A stretch of DNA of 64,000 nucleotides from Anolis carolinensis (lineage: Eukaryota): contig NW_026943825.1 in NCBI RefSeq assembly GCF_035594765.1, forward strand, positions 16,980,590 to 17,044,589, in the 5' to 3' direction. This document shows, piece after piece, positions 42,993 to 62,199 of the stretch; within the stretch, counting starts at the first letter, position 1; each line of letters begins with the position of its first letter. The notes beneath the pieces are model-generated. The model searched no databases. It worked only from the letters and a program-made list of their open reading frames with translations, and had not been told where the DNA came from. The translations under genes and the position numbers were made by a program.

Positions 42993-43759
42993 CCCTAATT
43001 AACGTGACTATCTCATTGGCCAGAAGCAGGAGCACACTTCCCATTGAAATCCTGATAAATGTAGGTTGGTTAAAATTGTTTTTATTTTTAAAGATTGTAT
43101 TGTTCTTTTATTGTTCTTGTTGTTGTTGTTTTTGCACAACAAATAAGACATATGCAGTGTGCATCGGAATTTGTTTTTATTTTTTTCCAAATGATAATCC
43201 GGCCCCTCAGCAGTCTGAAGGATTGTGGACCGGCCCTCGGCTTAAAACGTTTGAGGACCCCCGTCCCAGAGGGACTCAGGGCGGCTCACAAAACACTCAG
43301 GGTGTGACACAAAATACGAGGAGGAGACCCCTTGACCGTTTCCACGGCCTGTTCTTTCCCCTTCAAGTCTGCTGGTCTTTTCTCCGCTGCCCACTCCTTT
43401 TCAAGGAGCAGGTGGAGATTCCAGCGGGGATCCCATCAGGTCTGCTGGCTTTGTTCTGTTGTCGTTGGCCGGTGTCTTTGCCGACTTCCTTCCTCCCAAC
43501 CGAGGAGGACGGTGTCATGAAGTCCTGGGGGCCCTTTCCTCACACAGCGGTGTCTCTGTCCCGTTCTATCTACCGTAGGTGGTGATCCCGCTCTTCCTGG
43601 GCCAGCAGGTCCCCTCCGAGAAAGTCCAGGACGCGCTGGAGGAGCTGAACATCGCCCTCCAGAAGCTGGAGGAGAAGTTCCTTCAGGACCGGCCCTTCAT
43701 GATCGGGAACGAGATCTCCCTGGCTGACCTGGTGGCCGTCGTGGAGCTCATGCAGGTAA

Positions 43760-43791
<32 letters not shown>

Positions 43792-45621
43792 GTAAAACTT
43801 TATTTATATACTGCCCTGTCTCCCGGATGGGACTCAGGGCGGTTTACAGTCATAAACGCAAACACAAACATTACAGAACAACATAACACAAGTTCAAAAC
43901 TTCATGAGGACGAACCACCACAGAACATGAGGTCACAGTCAAAAAGTGATGATAAGACGTTATCTAAAACAGCGCTCAAAAATCAAAGGAAGCACGAGGC
44001 AAAGAAAGTTGCTAAACAGGAGGCCAGGGCCGAAGGGAACCAGGAAAGTGCTCCAGCCCCAGCCGTGCAGACTGCATTGCACAATATACCACCCGCTGTA
44101 ACATTGGGAGATCCTGAAGTGGATACGAAGATAAAGAATCTGAGGAAGAAGCTAAAAGCAATTGAACAGCTGAAAGATCAAGCTCCTACAGGCAAACAAC
44201 TAGAGAAAAACCAGCTGGAGAAGATTCAAAAAGAGGCTGCCCTTTTAAAGGAGCTTGAAAATCTGGAACTGGGACTCTAGAACGACAGAAGAATTGCAGT
44301 TTTGTTCTACAGAATCACTGAATAGTAAATGACTTCAGAATGTCCATTTTTAAATGCATACAGCACAGATGCTTTTTATTATTTCCCTTTAATATCTAAA
44401 TAATTGCAGAATTTAACAAGAAATGTAATTTAGAGCCAGGCAAACCATTTACTGTGTTTCAAAACACATTGATGAACTCCTAGTAAAGTACAAGGGGTCT
44501 TCTTACTTTTTACACAAAGTAAAATAATACAACACAGTCTTGGGACATGGAGGTAAAGTGTCTTTAACTTTGGAGCACCTTAATTAAAGCACCAGCAAGT
44601 CTTGAGCAAGTCTTGAGAGGAAGAGAGGAGAAAACAAGTGCACAGAGGTGTTGTAGTTCCCGGAGTTTGGAGTTTTCTATTTGTGTTTTGGAGTTCTTTC
44701 TGTTTCAGTTCATATAGTTTTAGTTAGAAACTCCTCAGCAGTAGGTGTTGTTTGCAGAGTAACAGAGATAAGTATGAGCAACAAGGAGTAGGAAGCAGCA
44801 TACACGGCACAAGTAATGTGAGCAAACAGCCAGAGTTTCTACAATAATGTTGCTCACTGCTCAAGCTGGAGATAACTGAAACAGACTGGAGCAGAATGGG
44901 AGTAAAATAAAATAAAAATATTAAAAGATAAAAGTAAGGAAAACAATGACGATACCGGAGCTCAGCTGAATGCCTCTTAACTCTCCGGTGTCTGCCTCCC
45001 GACTGTCAAAATAATACAATTATAACAATAAATCACACTTACATGACCAGATCAAGGGAACGGGAACCATAAAACCAATATATTAAAATGTATCATTTTA
45101 GGCTTGGGAAATCTTGTGCAATATATTCAGGCCCAGAAATCGGCGGTAGTCCAATGTAATTACTCAAAAACCTGCCGACACCACCAAGTCTTCAGTTCTC
45201 ACAAGTATGTGTACATATAGCAAAACAGTTTGAGTTTAAGACACTCTACTGCTTAAAGCATCTAGTACAGGGTTAAGCTTTTACTCATATATGCATAAGT
45301 AACAAAATAGTTAGAGTTCAATTCCCTCTTTTGCGACTTTCTATGATAATATTATAGTTTCGCAGTATGCTGCAAGTAGTTGTCTTCTTTTGCTTTTCTG
45401 CATAGGAGGAGCAGGTTGGTAAGTAGAAATGAAGGAATTCATACACCCTACATTGAGAATCACCATACCCCTCAACAGTTTATCGGCAGCCAGTGGAGCT
45501 GCTTTAAGAGGGGCGTTGTGTCCTCCTCCGTGGTCACGAGAAGAAGGAGGGACGGGCGGGGTCTTAGGAGGGGAGTGTGCTCTCTCCGGCCACGGTGGCG
45601 GCCCTTCACGCCCCGTCTCTC

Positions 45622-46640: not shown

Positions 46641-48455
46641 TAATAAATAATAATAATAATATAATAATTTTATTTTTGTACCCCGCCACCATCTCCCCAG
46701 TGGGACTCGGGGCGGCTTACAGATATAAAACCAGCATACAGTATACGGTTTTACAAAAACACACAAGTAAATTGAAAAGGCATTAAAAATCATGATCATT
46801 ATAAAACATATGAAAACACAGCAATGAGCTGGGCAAAGTGCACTGAGTGGAACTTGTAAACAAGAAGGAAGTTAAGGTGCTACAAGGTCATGGGAAGAGC
46901 CTTAGACTGGGGTGAACTCTGAGGCTACGTCAAGGAGTTAACCAACAACTGGTCAGAAGGACCCGCTCGTACCAGGGTTTAGTGAACAGTGGGCGGAACT
47001 TCTTCAAAGGCCTGTTTGAAGAGCCAGGTTTCCAGGCTCTTCCTGAACACTTCCAAGGAGGCCGCTTGCCTATTTCCCTGGGGAGCGCGTTCCAGAGCCG
47101 GGATGGGGGCCGCCACGGAGAAGGAAGGCCCTCTCTCTCCCTCGTCCCCACCAGCCGCGATTGCGAGGGTGGTGGGAGCGAGAGCAGGGCCTCCCCGATG
47201 AACGAAGAGATCGTGCAGGTTCGTAGGGAGAGATGCGGTCTCTAAGGTAAGTGGGTCCCAAACCATTCAGGGCTTTGTAGGTCAGCACCTGCACCTTGAA
47301 TTGGGTCCGGAAGGTGAGCGGCAGCCAGTGGAGCTCCTTGAACAGGGGCGTAGACCCCTCCCTGTCATTCGCTCCTGTTAGGAACCTGGCTGCCGCCCGC
47401 TGAACTAGCTGGAGTTTCTGGTCCGTCTTCAAAGGCAGCCCCACGTAGAGTGCGTTGCAATAATCCAATCTAGAGGTAACTAAGGCGTGGACCACCCTGG
47501 TCAGATCAGACTTCTCGAGGTACGGTCGCAGCTGGCGCACAAGTTTTAGTTGTGCAAAGGCCGACACCTGAGCCTCAAGCGTCAGAGATGAGTCCAGGAG
47601 GACCCCCAAGCTGCCATGGACCTGCGCCTTCAGGGGGAGTGCGACCCCGTCAAGCACAGGTGGCCACCCTATGCCCCGATCAGACGTACGACTGACCTGG
47701 AGGACCTCTGTCTTGTCGGGATTAAGCTTCAGCTTGTTCGCCCTCATCCAGCCCATCACAGCCGCCAGGCACTGGTCCAGAATCCGAGGGGCTTCCTTGG
47801 AGTTTGGTGGAAAAGAGTAGCAGAGTTGGGTGTCATCCGCGTAGAGATAGCACCGCACTCCAAAACTCCAGATGACCTCTCCCAGCGGTTTCATGTAGAT
47901 GTTAAAAAGCATGGGGGACAGAATGGAACCTTGCGGGACCCCACAGGTCAAAGGCCAGGGGTCCGGGCAGGTGTCCCCCAGCTTCACCAACTGGGATCGG
48001 CCCTCCAGAAAGGACTGGAGCCACTGGAGCGCAGTACCCCCAAGGCCCATCCCGGAGAGCCGTCCCAGAAGGAGACCATGGTCGATGGTATCGAAAGCGG
48101 CTGAGATGTCCAAGAGAACCAGCAGGGTCACCCTCCCCTGTCCAGTTCCCTGCAGAGGTCATCCACCAAGGCCACCCAAGCCGTCTCGGTGCTGTGCCCA
48201 GGTCTAAAGCCGGACTGCGATGGGTCCAGAAAATCAGTGTCATCCAAGAACCCCTGGAGCTGAGAGGCAACCACCCGCTCCAGGATCTTGCCCAAAAAAG
48301 GAAGATTCGAGATTGGTCTGTAGTTATTTAGGATGGTCGAATCAAGGGAGGCTTTCTTCAAAATTGGCCTCACTATAGCCTGTTTTAGGGCAGATGGAAA
48401 TTTGCCTTGAACCAGAGAGGCATTAATTATAAGGGAAATAAGGGTAGTCAATGGT
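46641..48455 (-). mobile_element. L2-clade LINE, 5'-truncated, with a frameshifted RT ORF2
   Basis: NYRPISNLPFLGKILE, QSGFRPGHSTETA, LLDISAAFDTIDH, GVPQGSILSP, YADDTQL, SRLDYCN, LHWLP; 3' UTR and (TTA)n tail at ~46641-46720. Confidence 0.92.
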
Positions 48456-48460
48456 TTTTG

Positions 48461-48746
48461 AGCCGCTGTGTGTGTTTGTCTCCATCCAGTGGTGAAAGGC
48501 GCGCATTGCAGGCGGAGATAAAGTGAATAGGGAATAAGCCGCTGTGTGTGTTTGTCTCCATCCAGTGGTGAAAGGTGCGCATTGCAGGCGGAGAGAGAGT
48601 GAATGGCCAGGAAGCCGCTGAGTGTGTGTTTGTCTCCATCCAGTGGTGAAAGGCGCGCATTGCAGGCGGAGAGAAAATGAATGGCCAGGAAGCCGCTGAG
48701 TGTGTTTGTCTCCATCCAGTGGTGAAAGGCGCGCATTGCAGGCGGA
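48461..48746. repeat. ~77-bp tandem repeat, ~4 copies, at the 5' break of the L2
   Basis: AGCCGCTG...GTTTGTCTCCATCCAGTGGTGAAAGGCGCGCATTGCAGGCGGA at 48461, 48537, 48613 and 48691. Confidence 0.92.
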
Positions 48747-48807
48747 CTGGAAAATTCCCCGCCTTGATCTCAATGGAGAGGGAGGAGGAGGAGGAAGCCC
48801 TCTCCAT

Positions 48808-49123: not shown

Positions 49124-49285
49124 AGAGAATGCTTCTGGTACAGCAACCCAATTATTTTATATTATTATATATATTGCACTATAGTATTATAACACGATGT
49201 ATATCATACACCACCGGTATATTATATGATTAGTATTATATAATATACTGTGCCATATCATAAGTTGCAGTATATATAATATAAA

Positions 49286-50335
49286 TTTTAGATGAAAACG
49301 GAGAGCGCATGCGTCGAGCAGCTCCCTGCTGTCCCGCCCAATTCGGCGAAACCCTGTCTGAGCCTGTGACGTGCGGGAGAATCGTCCAATCGGGAGGCGG
49401 CCCAGGGAGAAGGGGTGGGACCAAGGCCAAAAAGGCGGCCGGATTGGGAGGCTAACATATATTTTAGATGACACCGGAGTGCGCATGCGTCGAGCAGCTC
49501 CCTGCTGTCCCGCCCAATTTTGAGAAGCCCTGTCTGAGCCTGTGACGTGCGGGAGAATCGTCCAATCGGGAGGCGGCACAGGGAGAAGGGGTGGGACCAA
49601 GGCCAAAAAGGCGGCCGGATTGGCAGGCTAACATATTTTAGATGACAACGGAGTGCGCATGCGTCGAGCAGCTCCCTGCTTTCCGTCCCAATTTTGAGAA
49701 GCCCTGTCTGAGCCTGTGACGTGCGGGAGAATCGTCCAATCGGGAGGCGGCACAGGGAGAAGGGGTGGGACCAAGGCCAAAAAGGCGGCCGGATTGGCAG
49801 GCTAACATATAGTTTAGATGACAATGGAGTGCGCATGCGTCGAGCAGCTCCCTGCTGTCCCGCCCAATTTTGAGAAACCCTGTCTGAGCCTGTGACGTGC
49901 GGGAGAATCGTCCAATCGGGAGGCGGCCCAGGGAAAAGGGGTGGGACCAAGGCCAAAAAGGCGGCCGGATTGGCAGGCTAACCTATATTTTAGATGACAA
50001 CGGAGTGCGCATGCGTTGAGCAGCTCCCTGCTTTCCCGCCCAATTTTGAGAAGCCCTGTCTGAGCCTGTGACGTGCGGGAGAATCGTCCAATCGGGAGGC
50101 GGCCCAGGGAAAAGGGGTGGGACCAAGGCCAAAAAGGCGGCCGGATTGGCAGGCTAACCTATATTTTAGATGACAACGGAGTGCGCATGCGTTGAGCAGC
50201 TCCCTGCTTTCCCGCCCAATTTTGAGAAGCCCTGTCTGAGCCTGTGACGTGCGGGAGAATCGTCCAATCGGGAGGCGGCCCAGGGGGAAGGGGTGGGACC
50301 AAGGCCAAAAAGGCGGCCGGATTGGGAGGCGGGGC
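49286..50335 (+). promoter_or_regulatory. 6 x 176-bp tandem array of a promoter-like module
   Basis: Units at 49286, 49462, 49636, 49812, 49988 and 50164. Each has GCGCATGCG (NRF1), CCCAAT (usually CCGCCCAAT), TGACGT (CRE), CCAATC, GGGAGGCGG and GATTGG. The repeat is certain; promoter function is inferred. Confidence 0.75.
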
Positions 50336-52213: not shown

Positions 52214-52221
52214 CATATATA

Positions 52222-52700
52222 TTTTAGATGACAATGGAGTGCGCATGCGTCGAGCAGCTCCCTGCTTTCCCGCCCAAATTGGCGAAGCCCTCTCTGAGCC
52301 TGTGACGTGCGGGAGAATCGTCCAATCGGGCGGCGGCAGAGGGAGGGAGGAGGGGTGGGACCAAGGCCGAAAAGGCGGCCGTGGTGGAGGCGCCTCAGCC
52401 GTGTGAATTTACCTCAGGAAACGGGGCCTCGTTTGGCGCCCAGGCGTTTCCTTTCCCTCCGAGAGAGAGAGAGAGAGAGAGAGAAGGGCGCCTGGCCTGG
52501 CAGCCGTGGTTCAGGCCGGGCTGGGAAGGAGGGAAGAGCCGGCCCGGGTCCCCTCAGCCGTGGCTGGAAGGAAGGAAGGCCCCGAGGAGACAGGCCGGGA
52601 AGGGCGGGCGGGCTCTCTCTCTCTCTCTCTCTCTCTCTCCTCCCGCCACCCAGAGCCGGAGAGAGAGGTGAATCAGGGCCCGTGCTGTGGCCTCGCCTGG
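52222..52700 (+). promoter_or_regulatory. Single diverged copy of the 176-bp module followed by a GC/CpG-rich segment
   Basis: TTTTAGATGACAATGGAGTGCGCATGCGTCGAGCAGCTCC...TGTGACGTGCGGGAGAATCGTCCAATCGGG, matching the array unit. Confidence 0.7.
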
Positions 52701-53708
52701 TTCAGCCTCCTTTCTTGGGGATGAATCTGGAAAGAGTTGAAAGAGGAGAGAGACGCCTTTCCTTTGGGGAGTCACTTTTACCTCAGGAAAGGCTTTTCTT
52801 CCCGTCCAGAGGACCCTCTCTCTCCCACTCGATTTTAGGTTGGTTTCCTTGTTGTTTTGGGGGTTCTTTCATTACCTCAGGAATCCCCTCAAAAGTGAAA
52901 TACAAAGAGGAAAGGCCTGTTTTATTATATTACTCTGGTCTTAAATTTTCAAAAACGGCCTCAAATAGCACCAGGTCTTTCTCCAGATAAAGGTGGATAA
53001 AGGCTTTGTGAAACAGAAAGAAGGAAACTATTTCATTGATTAAGACTTCCATGAGGTTTTGCCTCCGAAATCACCTCGTCACAAAGCCTTTCTCTAGTAA
53101 GAGAGAAGATACAGTTGGGAAAAATGTTCACTGAAATATTTACAAAATCATTAAAATATTGACAAACATAATCATAAAAAATATTTGCAGAAATATTTGC
53201 CCAAAATAAGCAAAGTATTTGGGGAAAAATATTCATAAAATATTCACAAACGTATTCAGAAAAAAACAATCATGGAAACATTCACAAACATTGAAATAAA
53301 ATATTCACCCAAAAAATCATACAAATATTTGTGGAAACATTTGCCAAAAATAAGCAAAATATTCAGAAAAAATATTCACAAATACAGTAGAGTCTCACTT
53401 ATCCAACACTCGCTTATCCAACGTTCTGGATTATCCAACGCATTTTTGTAGTCAACGTTTTCAATAAATCCTGATATTTAGGTGCTAAATTCGTAAATAC
53501 AGTAATTACTACATAGTATTACTGCATATTGAACGACTTTTTCTGTCAAATTTGTTGTATAACATAATGTTTTGGTGCTTAATTTGTAAAATCATAAACT
53601 AATTTAATGTTGAATAGGCTTTTCCTTAATCTCTCCTTATTATCCAACATATTCGCTTATCCAACGTTCTGTCGGCCCGTTTACGTTGGATAAGCGGGAC
53701 TCTACTGT

Positions 53709-54186
53709 AATACCTGCTTTATTGATGAATAGTTTATTATTCTATCACCTCAAAAATTACAAAACTTTTGTCCAGAGAAAGACAAAGAACAACATTTTTG
53801 GAAATTTACACCATTTGATTTATTTCCAGCCTTAAGACCCATAAAGGGCCATAAAGAGCCAGGTGGCTTTACTCTGAGCAATAAATTTTACCTCAGAATA
53901 TGTTTTTTCTGTCATCTGGATAACTTCTTTTCACTTTATTCATGTATATTTCCTTATTATTTCAGAATTTTCTTTATCGAACCTTTACCTCAGAAAAGCC
54001 TTGTGAAATAGAAAGAAGAAAATGCCAATTTTATTTATTAAGAGATTGTCATCTCAGACTTTACCTCAGAAATGGCCAAGCCTTGTGAAACGGAAGGGAA
54101 AAACAAAGGCAAAACTTTTGAAAATTAGCACAGCTTTTTCTGAAGGGACCAGGTGAATATTGTTGCATTTTATTTATTATAATCTG
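53709..54186 (+). repeat. ~480-bp direct duplication of 50403-50879
   Basis: Colinear high identity from AATACCTGCTTT to TTATTATAATCTG; the same chimeric Penelope junction follows both copies (51196-51262 vs 54200-54266). Confidence 0.92.
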
Positions 54187-54753
54187 AAATAATAATTGGT
54201 TTCCAGAAGCATTCTCTCCTGACGTTTCGCCCACATCTATGGCAGGAAACCATAGATTGCTGGTGAAGTTTTTATATATCTTCGAAATGTCCAGGGTGGG
54301 AGAAAGAACTCTTGTCTGTTGGAGGCCGATGTGAATGCTGCTATTGGCCACCTTGATTAGCATTGAATGGCCTGCAGTTTCAAGGCCTGGCTGCTTCCTG
54401 CCTGGGGGAATCCTGTGTTTGGAGGTGTTAGCTGGCCCTGCTTTTTGAGGTGGCAGCCCAGAAACTCACAACAACCCAGTGATTCCGGCCATGAAAGCCT
54501 TTGACAACACATGGCAACATTTTTGAAAATTCACACAGCTTTCCAGAGGAAATGAGTAGAATAATAATGGCATTTTTTTTACCAATCTGATTTATTTCCA
54601 GCCTTAAGACCCATAACATGCTATGCTGAAAATTATATATATATATATACACAAAAGGTCGAAGAGACAGAAGACAGAAGATGCTCGAAGACACTCTCGC
54701 AAGGACACCGCCCGCCCCCCCAAAAAGGTCATTGTCAGGGTAATGGGTGTCAG

Positions 54754-55510
54754 GCTAGGCATTTAATGTCTATCTTTGCAATAAAAAACAGGCTACCTGT
54801 GTGCTAGGCTTTTGCATGAAGAACACGGTTCCCCTCGTGTGTGGCATCGAAGTTTCCCACTCGGGAACGGACGGGTCCTCCCTTTGTTCTAGGCAGATGA
54901 TGGGGGTTTTCCTATACAAGCCGTAGGGGCCACAGCTTGGGGGGCAGCGGGGGGCCCGGCCCTGGCACCGCGGGGAGCAGCACACGTTACGGGCATTTTA
55001 AAAGCTCCCTTAAACTTAGACAGTGGCTAGAAATAAAAATATTAATACCTTAACTCACCTACTAACCCTACTAACACCATTCTAACTAGGGCAGCCTGGC
55101 CTTTTAAATAGGACTGTGTTTTGCCTGCTGGCAAGAACCAAGCTGGGAGGGAAGGGGGCCTCCTGGCCCCCCATAGAAGGGCTCCCCTAGAAGGACATTC
55201 AAAATGCCCGCAAGGTGTCCTGAGAGCAGCCCCTGGGGCCCTCAGTGTGCCCCCCACGGTGCCAGGGCTGGGCCCCCCGCTCTCCCCCAACCCATGACCC
55301 CTGCCGCCTGTATATCGTCCGCCCAGGGCCAACGGACGCCCCCTCCCTCCCCGGGCGGAGCTTCGGCGCCACACACAAGCGGAGGCCAGCCGTGGCCGCC
55401 AGAACATGGAGAACCTGGTTTTTGACTGCAAACATAGGCATGTAGGGACCCCCTTTTATTTATGTAAGGCCACCCACCCAGGGGACCTCTGTTCCTAATT
55501 AAAGCCTGGT
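54754..55510. other. Imperfect foldback element, copy 1 (arms ~54754-55008 and ~55191-55510)
   Basis: CGGGCATTTTAAAA vs TTCAAAATGCCCG; GGGGGCCCGGCCCTGGCACCGCGGGG vs CCCCACGGTGCCAGGGCTGGGCCCCC; GTGTGTGGCATCGAAG vs CTTCGGCGCCACACAC. Confidence 0.8.
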
Positions 55511-55562
55511 TAAAGGGGATCCTCTATTCTTAAAGTAAGGCCTATAGAGATCTCCTATCCAG

Positions 55563-56255
55563 AAACTAAGGCGGCCTGGCCTATAAAGATCCCCTTTTGT
55601 TAAACTAAGGTGGCCTGGCCTATAGAGATCTCTTGTTGTTAAACTAAGGTGGCCTGGCCTATAGAGATCTCCTTTTGTTAAACTAAGGTGGCCTGGCCTA
55701 TAGAGATCTCTTGTTGTTAAACTAAGGTGGCCTGGCCTATAGAGATCTCCTTTTGTTAAACTAAGGTGGCCTGGCCTATAGAGATCTCTTGTTGTTAAAC
55801 TAAGGTGGCCTGGCCTATAGAGATCTCCTTTTGTTAAACTAAGGTGGCCTGGCCTATAGAGATCTCTTGTTGTTAAACTAAGGTGGCCTGGCCTATAGAG
55901 ATCTCCTTTTGTTAAACTAAAGTGGCCTGGCCTATAGGGATCTCCTTTTGTTAAACTAAGGTGGCCTGGCCTATAGGGATCTCCTTTTGTTAAACTAAGG
56001 TGGCCTGGCCTATAGGGATCTCCTTTTGTTAAACTAAGCTGCCCTGGCCTATAGAGATCTCCTATTCTTTAAGGTAACGCCAGGCGATGTGGAGATCCCT
56101 GGTTCTTTTAACCCTTAAGGCCAACCGTGGGGAGATCCCTGGTTCTTTTAACCCTTAAGGCCAACCGTGGGGAGATCCCTGGTTCTTTTAACCCTTAAGG
56201 CCAACCGTGGGGAGATCCCTGGTTCTTTTAACCCTTAAGGCCTGCCTGGGGAGAT
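55563..56255 (+). repeat. 39-bp tandem repeat (~13 copies) followed by a 40-bp repeat (~4 copies)
   Basis: AAACTAAGGTGGCCTGGCCTATAGAGATCTCCTTTTGTT, then GGAGATCCCTGGTTCTTTTAACCCTTAAGGCCAACCGTGG from 56091. Confidence 0.95.
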
Positions 56256-58223
56256 ATATTCTTTTTTCATGAAAAGTCGGGTATAGACCTTCTCTTTTCT
56301 CTCCCGTTTCATGTGCCTGGACTCCCGGAGGGCTCCTGCCGGACACCGTCTCCCATCGGCCGAGAGGGATCCTTCCTGTTTGGAAAGCATCTGCTACACA
56401 GGTAAAAAGAAGATTCCGGGAAGGAGATTCCTACAGCGGAGCCCTAAAGCCAGGTGAGACGTTCCTTCCAACCTCCACGGCTGCTTTGCACACACACACA
56501 TGACACACACATGACACACACACACACGCATATACAGCTGGGGGCCCTCAGGGACTCTCCCCCCAATAGATCGGGGACTCCCACTCCGGCAATTGGCCAT
56601 TGTAAATGCCTTGAAGCAGTTTGGGGCTTCCGGCCAAGCGCTCGCAAAGAGAACCCATTCAAGGTATACGTGGAGCCCCTTTTATTTATTATTTATTGAC
56701 AGCATTTCTATTCCGCCCTTCTTTCTCACCCCAAAGGGGACTCAGGGCGGATCACATGACACATATAGGCAAACATTCAGTGCCTTTTAACATAGAACAA
56801 AGACAAACAAACATAAGCTCCGAGCGGGTCTCGAACTCATGACCTCCTGGTCAGAGTGATTCATTGCAGTTATAATTGCAGCTGGCTTGCTCTCCCGCCT
56901 GCGCCACAGCCCGGGCCAACCTTGATAAAAAGGGCCTGGCACGTGGAAAACTCTATTTGTAAGGCAAACCCTCGTTAAAGGAGGTTTGCAATTAATTTAA
57001 AACCAGGCTTCTGAGGGACCCGCTGCGTTTAAAGCCAAACCTAGCAGGTGGGAACCTCTCTTGTTGGATAAAGGAGATCCCCTCTGGTTAACGTAAGGGG
57101 AGGGACCCTCCATTTTTAATAGGATGCCTGGCAGAATCTTAACCTCAATGCAGGCCTATGGGGTCCAGCCTTATTCTCAATGACTGCATAGCCAGGCATG
57201 AAGGGATCCCATATTATTAATTTGAAGCCTGGTAAAAAGAGATTTATGTATTTATTTATTTACTACATTTATACCCCGCCCTCTTTTCCCTTAAAGGGGA
57301 CTCAGAGCGGCTTACAAGTTATATTTACATACACTATCTCATTAGCATAGCACAATATTAGCATTATATATTACTACATTGCACTATACCACTATATAGA
57401 AATATTGTTACCAATATTACATTTAAAATATAATATGTAATTAATATTATTGTATCATTGTTAGTATTATATTGCTTTATTTATTTATTTATTTATTAGA
57501 TTTATATGCTGCCCTTCTCACCCCGAAGGGGACTCAGAACGGCTTAAAAATTAAATTTACATACAATATTATATTATTAGCATAGTACAATACTGGCAAT
57601 AAATTACTATATTGTACTATATCAATATATGGTAGTATTATTAGTAATATTACATGCAAAACATAATATATAATTAATATTATTATATTGTATTATTAGT
57701 ATATCGTATTACAATATAATATTATGAATATATGTATATACAATATGTTGTAATTATTATATATTAAATTATATATATATACACACACAGTAGAGTCTCA
57801 TTTATCCAACATAAACGGGCCAGCAGAATGTTGGATAAGCGAATATGTTGGATAATAAGGAGGGATTAAGGAAAAGCCTATTAAACATCAAATTAGTTTA
57901 TGATTTTACAAATTAAGCACCAAATCATCATGTTATACAACAAATTTGACAGAAAAAGTAGTTCAATATGCAGTAATGCTATGTAGTAATTACTGTATTT
58001 ATGAATTTAGTACCAAAATATCATGATGTCTTGAAAACATTGTCTACAAAAATGCGTTGGATAATCCAGAATGTTGGATAAGTGAGACTCTACTGTATAT
58101 AAAAATTAGAATAGCATGTTATTAGGGGAGGAGCATCTTAATTATTAGATGTCAGTATTAGTCATTAGATGTTAATATTAGTTATTCATATTAGTATCAA
58201 TATTACATTAATATACAATAAAG

Positions 58224-58300
58224 CAGGGGTCCCCAAACTAAGGCCCGTGTGCGGGATGCGGCCCATCGAAGCCATTTATCCGGCCCCCACAGCACAACCC

Positions 58301-58354
<54 letters not shown>

Positions 58355-58459
58355 GCATTGAGGCTGGGTGGCCATCTGTCAGGGGTGCTTTGCTTGTGCT
58401 TTCGGTGCACAAAGGCAGAAAGGGATTGGACTCAATGGCCAACCCTTCCAACCCTCATA

Positions 58460-58490
<31 letters not shown>

Positions 58491-58581
58491 ATTATTGCTT
58501 GGTGGCCAACTATAGTCTGGCCCTGCAATGGTCTGAAGGATCGTGAACTGGCTCCCTGTTTAAAAGGTTTGGGGACCCCTG
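58224..58581. mobile_element. hAT-type MITE
   Basis: TIR CAGGGGTCCCCAAAC / GTTTGGGGACCCCTG; 8-bp TSD CAATAAAG / CAATAGAG. Confidence 0.8.
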
Positions 58582-58787
58582 CAATAGAGTATATTATTAT
58601 CCTAGCACAATGTTATTATGTTATATAGTAGTATGTATGTTCATATTATTTATTCATATTAGTATCAATATGACATTAATATACAATAGAGTATATTATT
58701 ATCCTAGCACAATATTAGTATGTTATATAGTAGTATGTTGTTGCTAGGGGGAGGGGCCCCCCACTGATGGAGAGGGCCCCCCCACTG

Positions 58788-59585
58788 AGATCCCCTGTCA
58801 TTAATGTTAGACCAGGCATTTAACGCCTACCTTTGCATTAAAGAGCAGGCTCCTAGGCCTTTGCATTCAAGAGCAGTGCGCTAGGCCTTTGCGCAAGGAA
58901 CACCACCCACGGCTCCCCTTGTGCGTGGCGTTGAGGCCCCACTCGGTGACGGACGGGTCCTCCCTTTGCCCTGGGCAGGTCGTGGGGGGGGGGTCTCCCT
59001 GGATGTGCAGGGGGTCACGGCTGGGGGGAGAGCGGGGGCCCGGCCTTGGCACCCCCCTGGGGACCCGAGGGGCCGCTCTCAGCCCACGTCACGGGCATTT
59101 TAAAACGTCCCCGGGATATGTAGTAGCTCAGATTAATCCCTGCACTAACCGCTAACCCTACTAACCCAGTTCTAACCCGGGCAGGCTAGGCTTTTAAATA
59201 GGACTGTTTTTGCCTGTTGGCAAGAACCTAGTGGGAGGGGGCCTCCGGGCCTCCCGTGGGAAGAAGGGCTCCGCCCCCCCCGGCCCCCCGGCCCCTGCCC
59301 TGTGCTGGGAGCCCCCCGCCCGGGCCCCCAGAGGCCTCCCTGTGGTACCGGGCTTGGCCCCCGCTCTGCCCCCATCCGACGGCATAGGAAAGCCCCCCAC
59401 CATCCGCCCAGGGCCAACGGACGGCCCTCCCTCCCAGGGGCAGCCGCATTCCTCACGCAAAGGTCTGGCGCACGGGAGCCTGTTTCTGAATGCAAACGTG
59501 GGGCCCAGGACCCCCCCCCCCTTGTCTCCGTGCAGGGCCACCCCCCCAGGGACCCCCACAAATGCCTGGTGACAGGGGATCCTCT
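58788..59585. other. Imperfect foldback element, copy 2
   Basis: Termini GATCCCCTGTCA / TGACAGGGGATC; GTGCGCTAGGCCTTTGCG vs CGCAAAGGTCTGGCGCAC. Loop and both arms are homologous to copy 1. Confidence 0.8.
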
Positions 59586-60744
59586 CCTCTTAGCAGGAGG
59601 AAAAGCCACGTGCGTAAAGCGGTGCCTTTGCTCCCGTCGTTCCCAAGAGCCCCCCAAAAGCGAGATGCTCCCCTGGGTTCAGCCCTCCTGACCCCTGTCT
59701 TCTCCCTTGTTCCATGTCTCCAAAATCCCCGAGGGAGGGGCTCCTCCTGGACAAGAGCCAAGGAAGGACGGACGGACGGACGGACGGAGATCCCAGAGAG
59801 AGAGCGGAGAGCAGGATGCCTTGCCTTTTCGGAGCTGCTGAGGTCGACCCCTTTCCAACGATGTCAGCTTTCAAGAATAAAACTCTTCCCAAAAAAGTGT
59901 GTTCTGGTTATTATTCAAAGGCACAACGTTCAATATTTGACAGCATTAAACATCTAGATTACAGGACAGTTTATGTTACTGCATTTTATACACCTGACCT
60001 TGTTTTTACAAATAAAGTACCTGTATAATTTTTGCCTCTATATATATATATTGTACTATGCTCAGACTCATTGTTCTGATATGCTGTTATATGGTTTAAT
60101 TGTTTATATTGTTTATATTTTTAATGTATGACTGTTTATTACATCTGTCATTGGGCTTGTTTCCCATGTGAGCCACCCCGAGTCCTCCTGGGGGAGATGG
60201 GAGCGGGAATATAAAAATAAAGTATTATTTTGTATTATTATTATTATTTATAGTATTTATTATATATAATTTTCTTGCACCCCAAGTACCTCTGGCAAGT
60301 GCCAAAGAGTATTTAACTCTGCCTACATGGCACTAAAGTGTATTTATATGTTGATTGTTCCTATTGATTTTATGTTATGTTTTTTTTTGCTTTGTATAAT
60401 AAGGCATTGAATTTTTGCCTTAATAATAATAATTTTATGAAAGTTTTAATGTCACTGAATTTTAAATTGGATTGAAATGTCATTGTAATTGTTTATATGT
60501 GTATTTTCTATTTGTAAGCCACCCTGAGTCTCCCCTTATTGGGTGAGAAGGTTTGGGAAGAAATACTGTCATAAATAAATAAATATTCTGTGTCCAGGTT
60601 GGTTCATGGTTGACTTCTCTGGCAGGATGAGTCTGCAGGGCCTTTCCTGTCCCATGCAGCCGTGGGCAAGTCTACACAGGGACCACCAAGCCCAGCACTC
60701 TGCCCCACAGCAAGCATGCAACAGAAAAGGCACTGCAGACACTC

Positions 60745-61480
60745 CTGCGCCTGCGCGGCCTGCTCCCGATTCGAGGGAACTTGGCCCGCCCACTACAGGC
60801 ATCCCTTTATGCGCCTGCGCGGGCTGCTCCCTATGAGAGCGAACGTGGCCCCGCCCACTGCAGGCATCCCTTTATGCGCCTGCGCGGGCTGCTCCCTATG
60901 AGAGCGAACTTGGCCCCGCCCACTGCAGGCATCCCTTTATGCGCCTGCGCGGCCTGCTCCCGATTCGAGGAAACTTGGCCCGCCCACTGCAGGCATCCCT
61001 TTATGCGCCTGTGCGGCCTGCTCCGTATGAGAGCGAACGTGGCCCCGCCCACTACAGGCATCCCTTTATGCGCCTGCGCGGCCTGCTCCGTATGAGAGCG
61101 AACTTGGCCCCGCCCACTGCAGGCATCCCTTTATGCGCCTGCGCGGCCTGCTCCGTATGAGAGCTAACTTGGCCCCGCCCACTGCAGGCATCCCTTTATG
61201 CGCCTGCGCGGCCTGCTCCCGATTCGAGGGAACTTGGCCCGCCCACTGCAGGCATCCCTTTATGCGCCTGTGCGGCCTGCTCCGTATGAGAGCGAACGTG
61301 GCCCCGCCCACTACAGGCATCCCTTTATGCGCCTGCGCGGCCTGCTCCGTATGAGAGCGAACGTGGCCCCGCCCACTACAGGCATCCCTTTATGCGCCTG
61401 CGCAGCCTGCTCCCTATGAGAGCGAACGTGGCCCCGCCCACGACAGGCATCCCTCTCCCTCCCTTCTGCGCCTGCGCGGC
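60745..61480 (+). repeat. 65-bp tandem array (~11 copies) carrying NRF1 and Sp1/KLF motifs
   Basis: GGCATCCC at 60798, 60863, 60928, 60992, 61057, 61122, 61187, 61251, 61316, 61381 and 61446; units contain TGCGCCTGCGC and (C)CCCGCCC. Confidence 0.95.
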
Positions 61481-61770
61481 CTCCTCGGCGTCACCGGAAG
61501 CTCCGTCACAGGGCGGCAAGATGGCGGCCCGGCCCGGTCAGAGGCGTTCGGGGCGGCGTTTCCACGGTGACCCGGGTCCGTCGAGGCTTCGTCGCCAAGG
61601 CCCGGGAGGAGGAGGAAGGGCGCCGGGAGCGTGGCCTTCCAAACCGAGCCGGGGTTGGGCGTGAGGCCGCGCCTGCCTCCCTTCCCTGCCCGGACGTTTG
61701 CAGGCCAAGGCGGGGAAGGAATCCCAGGCAGGAAAAGCCCCTTGGCCTGCGCGCCCTCCCTGCCTGCCGG
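61460..61770 (+). promoter_or_regulatory. CpG-island core promoter / probable first exon of a downstream gene
   Basis: CGTCA-CCGGAAG (CRE half-site plus ETS) at ~61489-61500, YY1 motif CAAGATGGCGGC at 61517, candidate donor GTGAGG at 61661. Confidence 0.6.
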
Positions 61771-62199
61771 AGTTTGGGACTCTTCCCAACCCGTAGGCTG
61801 GCTGCTAGGCATTGTGGGAGTTGGAGTCCCAAGTTCGCCCAGGCCTCTTCTTTTTTCCTGACCTTTTTTAAAAAATAATTATGTATCAAAAAAAAGTTTT
61901 CAATAAAAATGATTTAAAAAAAATAAATGGAGGTGAGCACCAACCTCCAGAGTGTGAGTAGATCAATAGGTACCGCTCCAGCGGGAAGGCAACGGCGCTC
62001 CATGCCGTCGTGCCAGTGGCCACATGACCCTGGAGGTGTCTACGGACAACGCCGGCGCTTCGGCTTAGAAATTATTTCTACTAATAGGTTTGAGAAAGTA
62101 AAAAAGTAGACCAGAAGGAAGAAGGCGGGACCAGGAAGACACCTGTCCATCATGTCTCCTGTATCAATTTCACAATAGAATAATAGAGAATACTCATAT

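Follow-up and report, generated by a model that had tools for sequence, protein, structure and literature searches.

Twin foldbacks with UACUAAC loops in a subtelomeric unit of small Anolis carolinensis chromosomes: a candidate telomere-directed hairpin RNA

What is a pair of long, imperfect palindromes, each displaying branch-point-like motifs in its loop, doing near the end of an Anolis chromosome? The two elements, here termed foldbacks, lie in a 64-kb stretch of Anolis carolinensis DNA (the window; contig NW_026943825.1, positions 16,980,590–17,044,589); coordinates below are those of the window unless a contig is named, and C1–C17 denote contigs of the genome assembly. A first-pass annotation had offered several identities: a hairpin-RNA locus, a promoter embedded in a palindrome, or an unrecognised foldback transposon or viral terminus. 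The explanation that we favour, with a probability of roughly 0.55, is that the foldbacks form part of an abundant, multicopy, non-coding RNA polymerase II (Pol II) RNA directed at the telomere, probably an ADAR-edited hairpin showing a UACUAAC loop in a Gomafu-like manner.

Both direct copies proved real. In blastn, 54748–55355 aligns with 58805–59439 at 67% identity (E-value 1e-47), inverted arms are present in each copy, and the predicted RNA folds reach z scores of –6.8 for copy 1 and –4.0 for copy 2, with 0 of 20 shuffles equally good for either. Self-alignment and folding place the arms of copy 1 (type 1A, + strand) at ~54766–55012 on the left and ~55188–55441 on the right, around a loop of 175 nt (55013–55187) that holds CCTACTAAC at 55058 and 55067, a TATA-like 10-mer at 55101–55110, and two small hairpins, the first at 55116–55138, with its variable base only within the 4-nt loop, and the second at 55154–55171. 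The arms of copy 2 (type 2A, + strand), delimited in the same way, lie at ~58789–59096 and ~59291–59581, and its 194-nt loop (59097–59290) contains CCTACTAAC at 59157 and both small hairpins as in copy 1. The first-pass annotation had correctly placed the arm blocks common to both copies, the CTAAC cluster (P ~0.005 in 20,000 pair-shuffles of the loop), the TATA-like 10-mer and a minus-strand AG/GTGAGT donor in copy 1. The further homology that it saw downstream (56286–56346 versus 59689–59752) can be made out by eye, although blastn did not list it at E ≤ 0.01. Its description of the loop as the best-kept part holds between the two copies, which differ at 2 of 30 sites in the loop hairpin versus 28 of 121 and 36 of 99 in the arms. 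The outer arm ends grade into degenerate 39-bp units.

The pair belongs to a family of six copy types, namely 1A and 2A in the window and 1B, 2B1, 2B2 and 2C elsewhere, which are 59–98% alike. Across 75 distinct copies, CCTACTAAC is retained in 74, at least two [AG]CTAAC motifs in 75, and the core of the small loop hairpin in 75; perfect UACUAAC motifs number two in most copy-1 loops and mostly one in copy-2 loops, accompanied by near-matches. A basal stem is present in all six types, including 2C, which has lost most of its right arm, and large right-arm deletions occur in 2A, 2B and 2C.

Where these copies lie is as distinctive as what they contain. The foldback pair sits inside a 17–20 kb subtelomeric unit that forms tandem repeats on C9 and also occurs at other contig ends. 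An exact 20-mer from copy 1 occurs at 56 genomic places (27 on C9, 24 on C10–C17, one on C7 and four on small contigs), and a genome-wide search found it at none on C1–C6. Copy 1 is no more than 60 kb from 17 of the 18 ends of C9–C17, on the – strand at left ends and on the + strand at right ends, with the left cluster of C17 set 0.44–0.47 Mb inward; the window is 84 kb from the telomeric end of C16. From this polarity of the terminal copies it follows that the + strand of the window is directed at the chromosome tip. C5 (207 Mb), capped by a telomere array at either end, lacks the unit. At the remaining 10 ends of C1–C6 the last 6 kb contain no telomere array, and absence of the unit there is accordingly not demonstrated. 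Motif matches on the macrochromosomes are of little substance, in that 8 of 12 15-mer hits and an 18-mer hit on C3 lack further homology.

Internal clusters of the unit adjoin 200-N gaps at 15.6–15.7 Mb on C9 (gap at 15.66 Mb) and at 5.3 Mb on C7 (gap at 5.32 Mb), and probably mark places where chromosome ends were joined in scaffolding; given these gaps, and with the 30 Mb cluster of C9 partly sampled, we did not accept them as true chromosome fusions. The C7 cluster spans 5.32–5.35 Mb, and internal clusters also occur at 30.1–30.5 Mb on C9, 0.44–0.47 Mb on C17 and 1.13 Mb on C15; they are arranged head-to-head on C9, and these too are probable joins of chromosome ends. Satellites were also seen beside the unit: one of ~147 bp occupies more than 30 kb between the type-B unit and the C16 telomere (locus L034 from 7800 to the end of L036, and L099), with related arrays at 30.47 Mb on C9 and 5.33 Mb on C7, and at the right end of C7 (L097) a truncated type-B unit stops ahead of the foldback and passes into a ~62-bp satellite. 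As to origin, the foldback may have arisen by inverted duplication within a degenerate 39-bp minisatellite, followed by tandem duplication, and the unit may have spread among chromosome ends by ectopic recombination.

A foldback transposon or miniature inverted-repeat transposable element (MITE) fits this distribution poorly and is not supported. The arms have no sharp terminal inverted repeats and fade into 39-bp units, no target-site duplication was recognised in the six types, there are no dispersed insertions, and no enzyme was found; all copies examined have the flanks of the 17–20 kb unit in common and travel with it. The viral terminus was rejected, as the 22 IMG/VR viral contigs that match do so over at most 35 nt around the seed. 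A term search of the available text of an Anolis DNA transposon paper (PMC3014272) found nothing on elements that are palindromic, foldback or subtelomeric.

Is the unit transcribed, and from which strand? Contigs from four of 24 listed sequencing runs (X1, X3, X8 and X15) were placed on 52450–57600, an interval that includes copy 1 and excludes copy 2. X1, X3 and X8 come from three studies and are guessed to be RNA, whereas X15, with its flat depth, behaves as DNA. The ratio of depth over the foldback to depth over the upstream intron is 262 in X1, 73 in X3 and 20 in X8, versus 0.69 in X15. Among the 15 of 157 joints listed, a GT..AG joint on the + strand, from 52838 to 53966, is carried by X1 (depth 1403) and X3 (depth 968) and is absent from X8 and X15. 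It defines a spliced intron of 1127 nt (52839–53965) between the 3′ part of an upstream exon (52732–52838, ending at an AG/GTTGGT donor) and a next exon (53966–54152), after which stands a donor-like CAG/GTGAAT that may also be used, with contigs of X3 and X8 stopping exactly at 54152. Over the foldback, many of the guessed-RNA contigs have the letters of type 1B; a large share of the signal thus stems from type-B units at the chromosome ends. We regard the foldback region as very probably transcribed.

The same data bear on two readings in which the loop would serve splicing or initiation. Were the foldback intronic, its YACTAAC motifs might be true branch points for a loop exon, with arm pairing leading to skipping or back-splicing, and a donor-like CAGG/GTAAT directly before the left arm in 57 rows (partly redundant), together with AG dinucleotides after the loop motifs, would suit such a role. 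However, depth in X1 over the arms, the loop and the downstream arrays is at least that over the spliced exons, and none of the joints listed leads into the loop or passes around it, which leaves this reading improbable. More improbable still is the minus-strand promoter that the first-pass annotation had seen in the loop, in which a TATA box and first donor would drive transcription toward the centromere. In its favour, 67 of 75 copies carry the TATA-like 10-mer, and transcription of both strands has been reported for the chicken subtelomeric PO41 repeats (available text of PMC7374410). Against such a promoter, the 10-mer is lost in eight copies, among them all seven of type 2B1, the AG/GTGAGT donor occurs in only 27 of 75, all of type 1A, and the only joint seen is on the + strand; in addition, the "GAG/GTAAA array" toward which the donor was thought to point reads TTACCTCAG on the + strand, which is acceptor-like. 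The hairpin-RNA idea and the + strand ACUAAC reading of the same annotation fared better, with the foldback abundant in the guessed-RNA runs, the upstream + strand joint, and a candidate adenosine-to-inosine (A-to-I) site in the stem.

That site is position 54934 (+ strand), an adenine that the predicted fold leaves unpaired, facing C in an internal A:C mismatch of the stem; an A opposite C within a stem is a classic context for ADAR editing. X1, X3 and X8 have G at this base whereas X15 has A, and the genome has A at 56 of 56 places, with no G. Among the contigs with G is one of 277 nt that is of type 1A, with four differences. The RNA-only G at this mismatch points to a folded + strand RNA.

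Under the explanation that we favour, Pol II would transcribe from each small-chromosome end toward the telomere, with a GC-rich 176-bp tandem array (49277–50330, + strand; CpG observed/expected 0.81) as the candidate promoter of the unit. The array contains six NRF1-type, six CRE-type, 12 CCAAT-type and five GC-box motifs, and an extra partial 176-bp unit lies at ~52216–52400. Spliced exons and foldback may share a single transcript that would end after copy 2 at an AATAAA followed by a GT-rich stretch (59876–59915, + strand), a candidate poly(A) site also present in the 2B1 and 2C copies read. Between these limits, the window copy has a ~600-bp deletion site at 54649–54651, recognised by comparison with other copies, most of which carry there a strong polypyrimidine-CAG acceptor-like sequence ahead of the foldback that the window copy has lost. 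Downstream of copy 1, a 39-bp array (55539–56063) and a 40-bp array (56091–56255) have high depth in X1 and X3, and degenerate units of 39/40-bp type border both foldbacks and reappear at 56915–57240. No coding frame was found, 16 frames within 52298–61913 giving no match to Pfam, and the foldback has no match in Rfam, either in the window or at four other loci. The foldbacks would then form long duplexes edited by ADAR, and each loop would present UACUAAC motifs and two small hairpins to proteins of the SF1/QKI type. By analogy with Gomafu and SF1, the editing and the UACUAAC cluster may hold the RNA back in the nucleus and concentrate branch-point-binding proteins at the ends of microchromosomes; as for function, by analogy with Gomafu and the LL2R repeat RNA, the hairpin RNA might act as a nuclear scaffold or sponge for such proteins.

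Several observations weigh against this explanation. Total A>G counts in X1, X3 and X8 (16, 15 and 15) are no higher than in X15 (16), and the editing case is a single site, among the 40 of 145 difference rows listed. Contigs guessed to be RNA cannot give strand, ends or level, and they cover only 52450–57600. The + strand shows no G-U bias (84 G-U versus 96 A-C positions), and the minus strand folds more stably in six of six types. Between unit types A and B, the loop loses the advantage that it has between copies 1 and 2, with substitutions of 6.7% and 9.8% in the loop core versus 7.4% for the repeats that flank it, and of the four arms three change more quickly than these flanks. Arm-to-arm concerted sites are only modestly above the homoplasy control (e.g. 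4 versus 2, and 12 versus 3). In favour of the explanation, six of 26 pairs of the basal stem have changes on both sides, and the covariation score of 0.153 compares with 0.100 for shuffled alignments (0 of 500 shuffles as good), albeit for a structure derived from the same six related sequences. Owing to indels in the arms, RNAalifold on the whole alignment failed to reconstruct the long stem in full, and its covariation term was +3.06. Evidence for selection on the foldback structure is therefore weak.

These points define the main rival, a passenger palindrome in a transcribed subtelomeric duplicon. By this account, an old inverted duplication, or the unrecognisable relic of a MITE, folds and is edited without having a selected role, and matching changes in the arms are the product of arm-to-arm copying. 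The A versus B comparison of loop, arms and flanks speaks for it, as do the missing G-U bias and the large right-arm deletions in 2A, 2B and 2C. It accounts less readily for loop motifs and a small hairpin kept in 74–75 of 75 copies despite differences between copies 1 and 2 at ~20–40% of arm sites, for variation of the small hairpin that is confined to its loop, and for the very high depth in the guessed-RNA runs. We see it as a serious possibility, if an unlikely one.

Could the duplex instead be the functional product? If it were diced to endogenous small interfering RNAs (endo-siRNAs) or a microRNA (miRNA), these would act on the many copies of the unit, and long imperfect stems in an abundant RNA, multicopy targets and some compensatory pairs are what such a locus would offer. 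Yet the arms are only ~64% Watson–Crick (730 of 1136 aligned sites in six types) with many gaps, the foldback has no Rfam miRNA match, and none of 10 supplementary files that accompany an Anolis carolinensis miRNA study (PMC4858913; a weak test, with the species assumed) contains any of four short spellings of the invariant motifs. We hold dicing to be a slim prospect. Known hairpin-RNA endo-siRNA loci and expressed inverted duplicates, as described in the available parts of PMC10317233 and PMC5398296, similarly place a long imperfect intramolecular duplex in a non-coding transcript; the foldbacks differ in their large structured loop with conserved motifs and in their distribution at chromosome ends.

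Returning to the favoured telomere-directed hairpin RNA, the closest parallel in setting is TERRA, the RNA that contains telomeric repeats. As in TERRA (available text of PMC5087959, PMC6600276 and PMC6795134), a tandem-repeat CpG island with NRF1-type motifs lies near many chromosome ends and is common to them; NRF1 sites occur at human subtelomeric promoters (PMC5087959). Transcription is tip-directed in both, insofar as the joint here is on the + strand and + points toward the tip in all terminal copies, with the strand over the foldback presumed to be the same. In contrast to TERRA, the RNA here is spliced, carries long hairpins and C-rich CUAAC motifs in place of UUAGGG, and appears limited to small chromosomes. 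Its candidate poly(A) site also falls 8–51 kb short of the telomere array (right ends of C13 and C16), and reading into UUAGGG repeats is unlikely for that reason. Telomere-ward of the foldbacks, we also observed a second CpG array (60746–61900, with a 65-bp unit and GCGCCTGCGC occurring 10 times) and a further stretch that resembles a promoter and has an ATG and a donor (L034 2940–3300 and 5500–5900), both of which are candidates for a true TERRA promoter.

The parallel in motif is Gomafu (MIAT), a non-coding RNA that remains in the nucleus and binds SF1 through its tandem UACUAAC repeats, according to the available text of PMC3116199. The likeness is one of motif: here each loop has one or two perfect motifs and near-matches, displayed in a long hairpin, and where Gomafu is a single locus, copy 1 alone has 56 places in a multicopy subtelomeric family. 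Among microchromosome repeats, chicken CNM is a 40-bp repeat absent from macrochromosomes 1–5, and transcripts of chicken PO41 are nuclear with short duplexes (both from the available text of PMC7374410), while LL2R repeat RNA is described as recruiting splicing factors (10.64898/2026.03.19.712899, available text). The Anolis unit, too, contains 39/40-bp arrays; those repeats and LL2R form simple tandem arrays, whereas the present unit is gene-like, with a promoter array, an intron and two large foldbacks.

Other telomere-related identities were tried and rejected. A vertebrate telomerase RNA is contradicted by the lack of an RF00024 match to the foldback, by alignment scores of the species' own TERC to the six types that stay at shuffle level, and by the 9-nt CTAACCCTA, which is broken in all 20 type-1B copies. 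The genome has a single canonical TERC gene (C3:268449559–268449963, minus strand, 137.5 bits to RF00024). For the terminus of a DIRS, Penelope or long terminal repeat (LTR) retroelement, no Pfam reverse transcriptase, recombinase or integrase was found in the frames tested over 52298–61913, and the nearest reverse transcriptase (47073–48769) is outside the shared unit. A telomere-attached Penelope-type element was set aside as well, since the C-rich motifs are on the telomere's G-rich strand, which is the wrong orientation.

On the centromere side of the unit, the window contains cytochrome P450 exons and another glutathione S-transferase (GST) exon (996–4537 and 30378–30986), large arrays of related 20/41/61/143-bp units built on AGGCCT-containing repeats (29891–36127), and, at 43579–44280, a GST-theta exon followed in frame by an eIF2A C-terminal fragment (E-value 7e-48 to 8dys_A). 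The eIF2A fragment is likely a retrocopy piece within the GSTT gene, and GSTT seems to be the final ordinary gene ahead of the subtelomeric unit.

Overall, we class the unit among subtelomeric non-coding RNA units, where it stands out for its microchromosome-limited distribution, its high expression and its twin branch-point-motif hairpins; a literature search that did not extend to closed papers, bioRxiv supplements, Dfam, Repbase, miRBase or gene annotation turned up no description of the element. Bird and reptile microchromosomes crowd together in the nucleus and have repeats in common (available text of PMC8609325). A gene-like and strongly expressed hairpin RNA, encoded at almost every microchromosome end and missing from the one macrochromosome assembled in full, is a concrete candidate for what marks them. 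A bolder reading, which we consider a long shot, is that of a microchromosome-specific architectural RNA, produced at the ends of all small chromosomes but of no large one, in which edited duplex and UACUAAC loop would gather SF1/QKI-type proteins and draw microchromosome ends together in the nuclear interior. Were it true, the RNA would provide a molecular handle on microchromosome clustering. At the least, the unit marks the polarity of microchromosome ends and of scaffold joins in the assembly, and its six diverged hairpins form a natural series.

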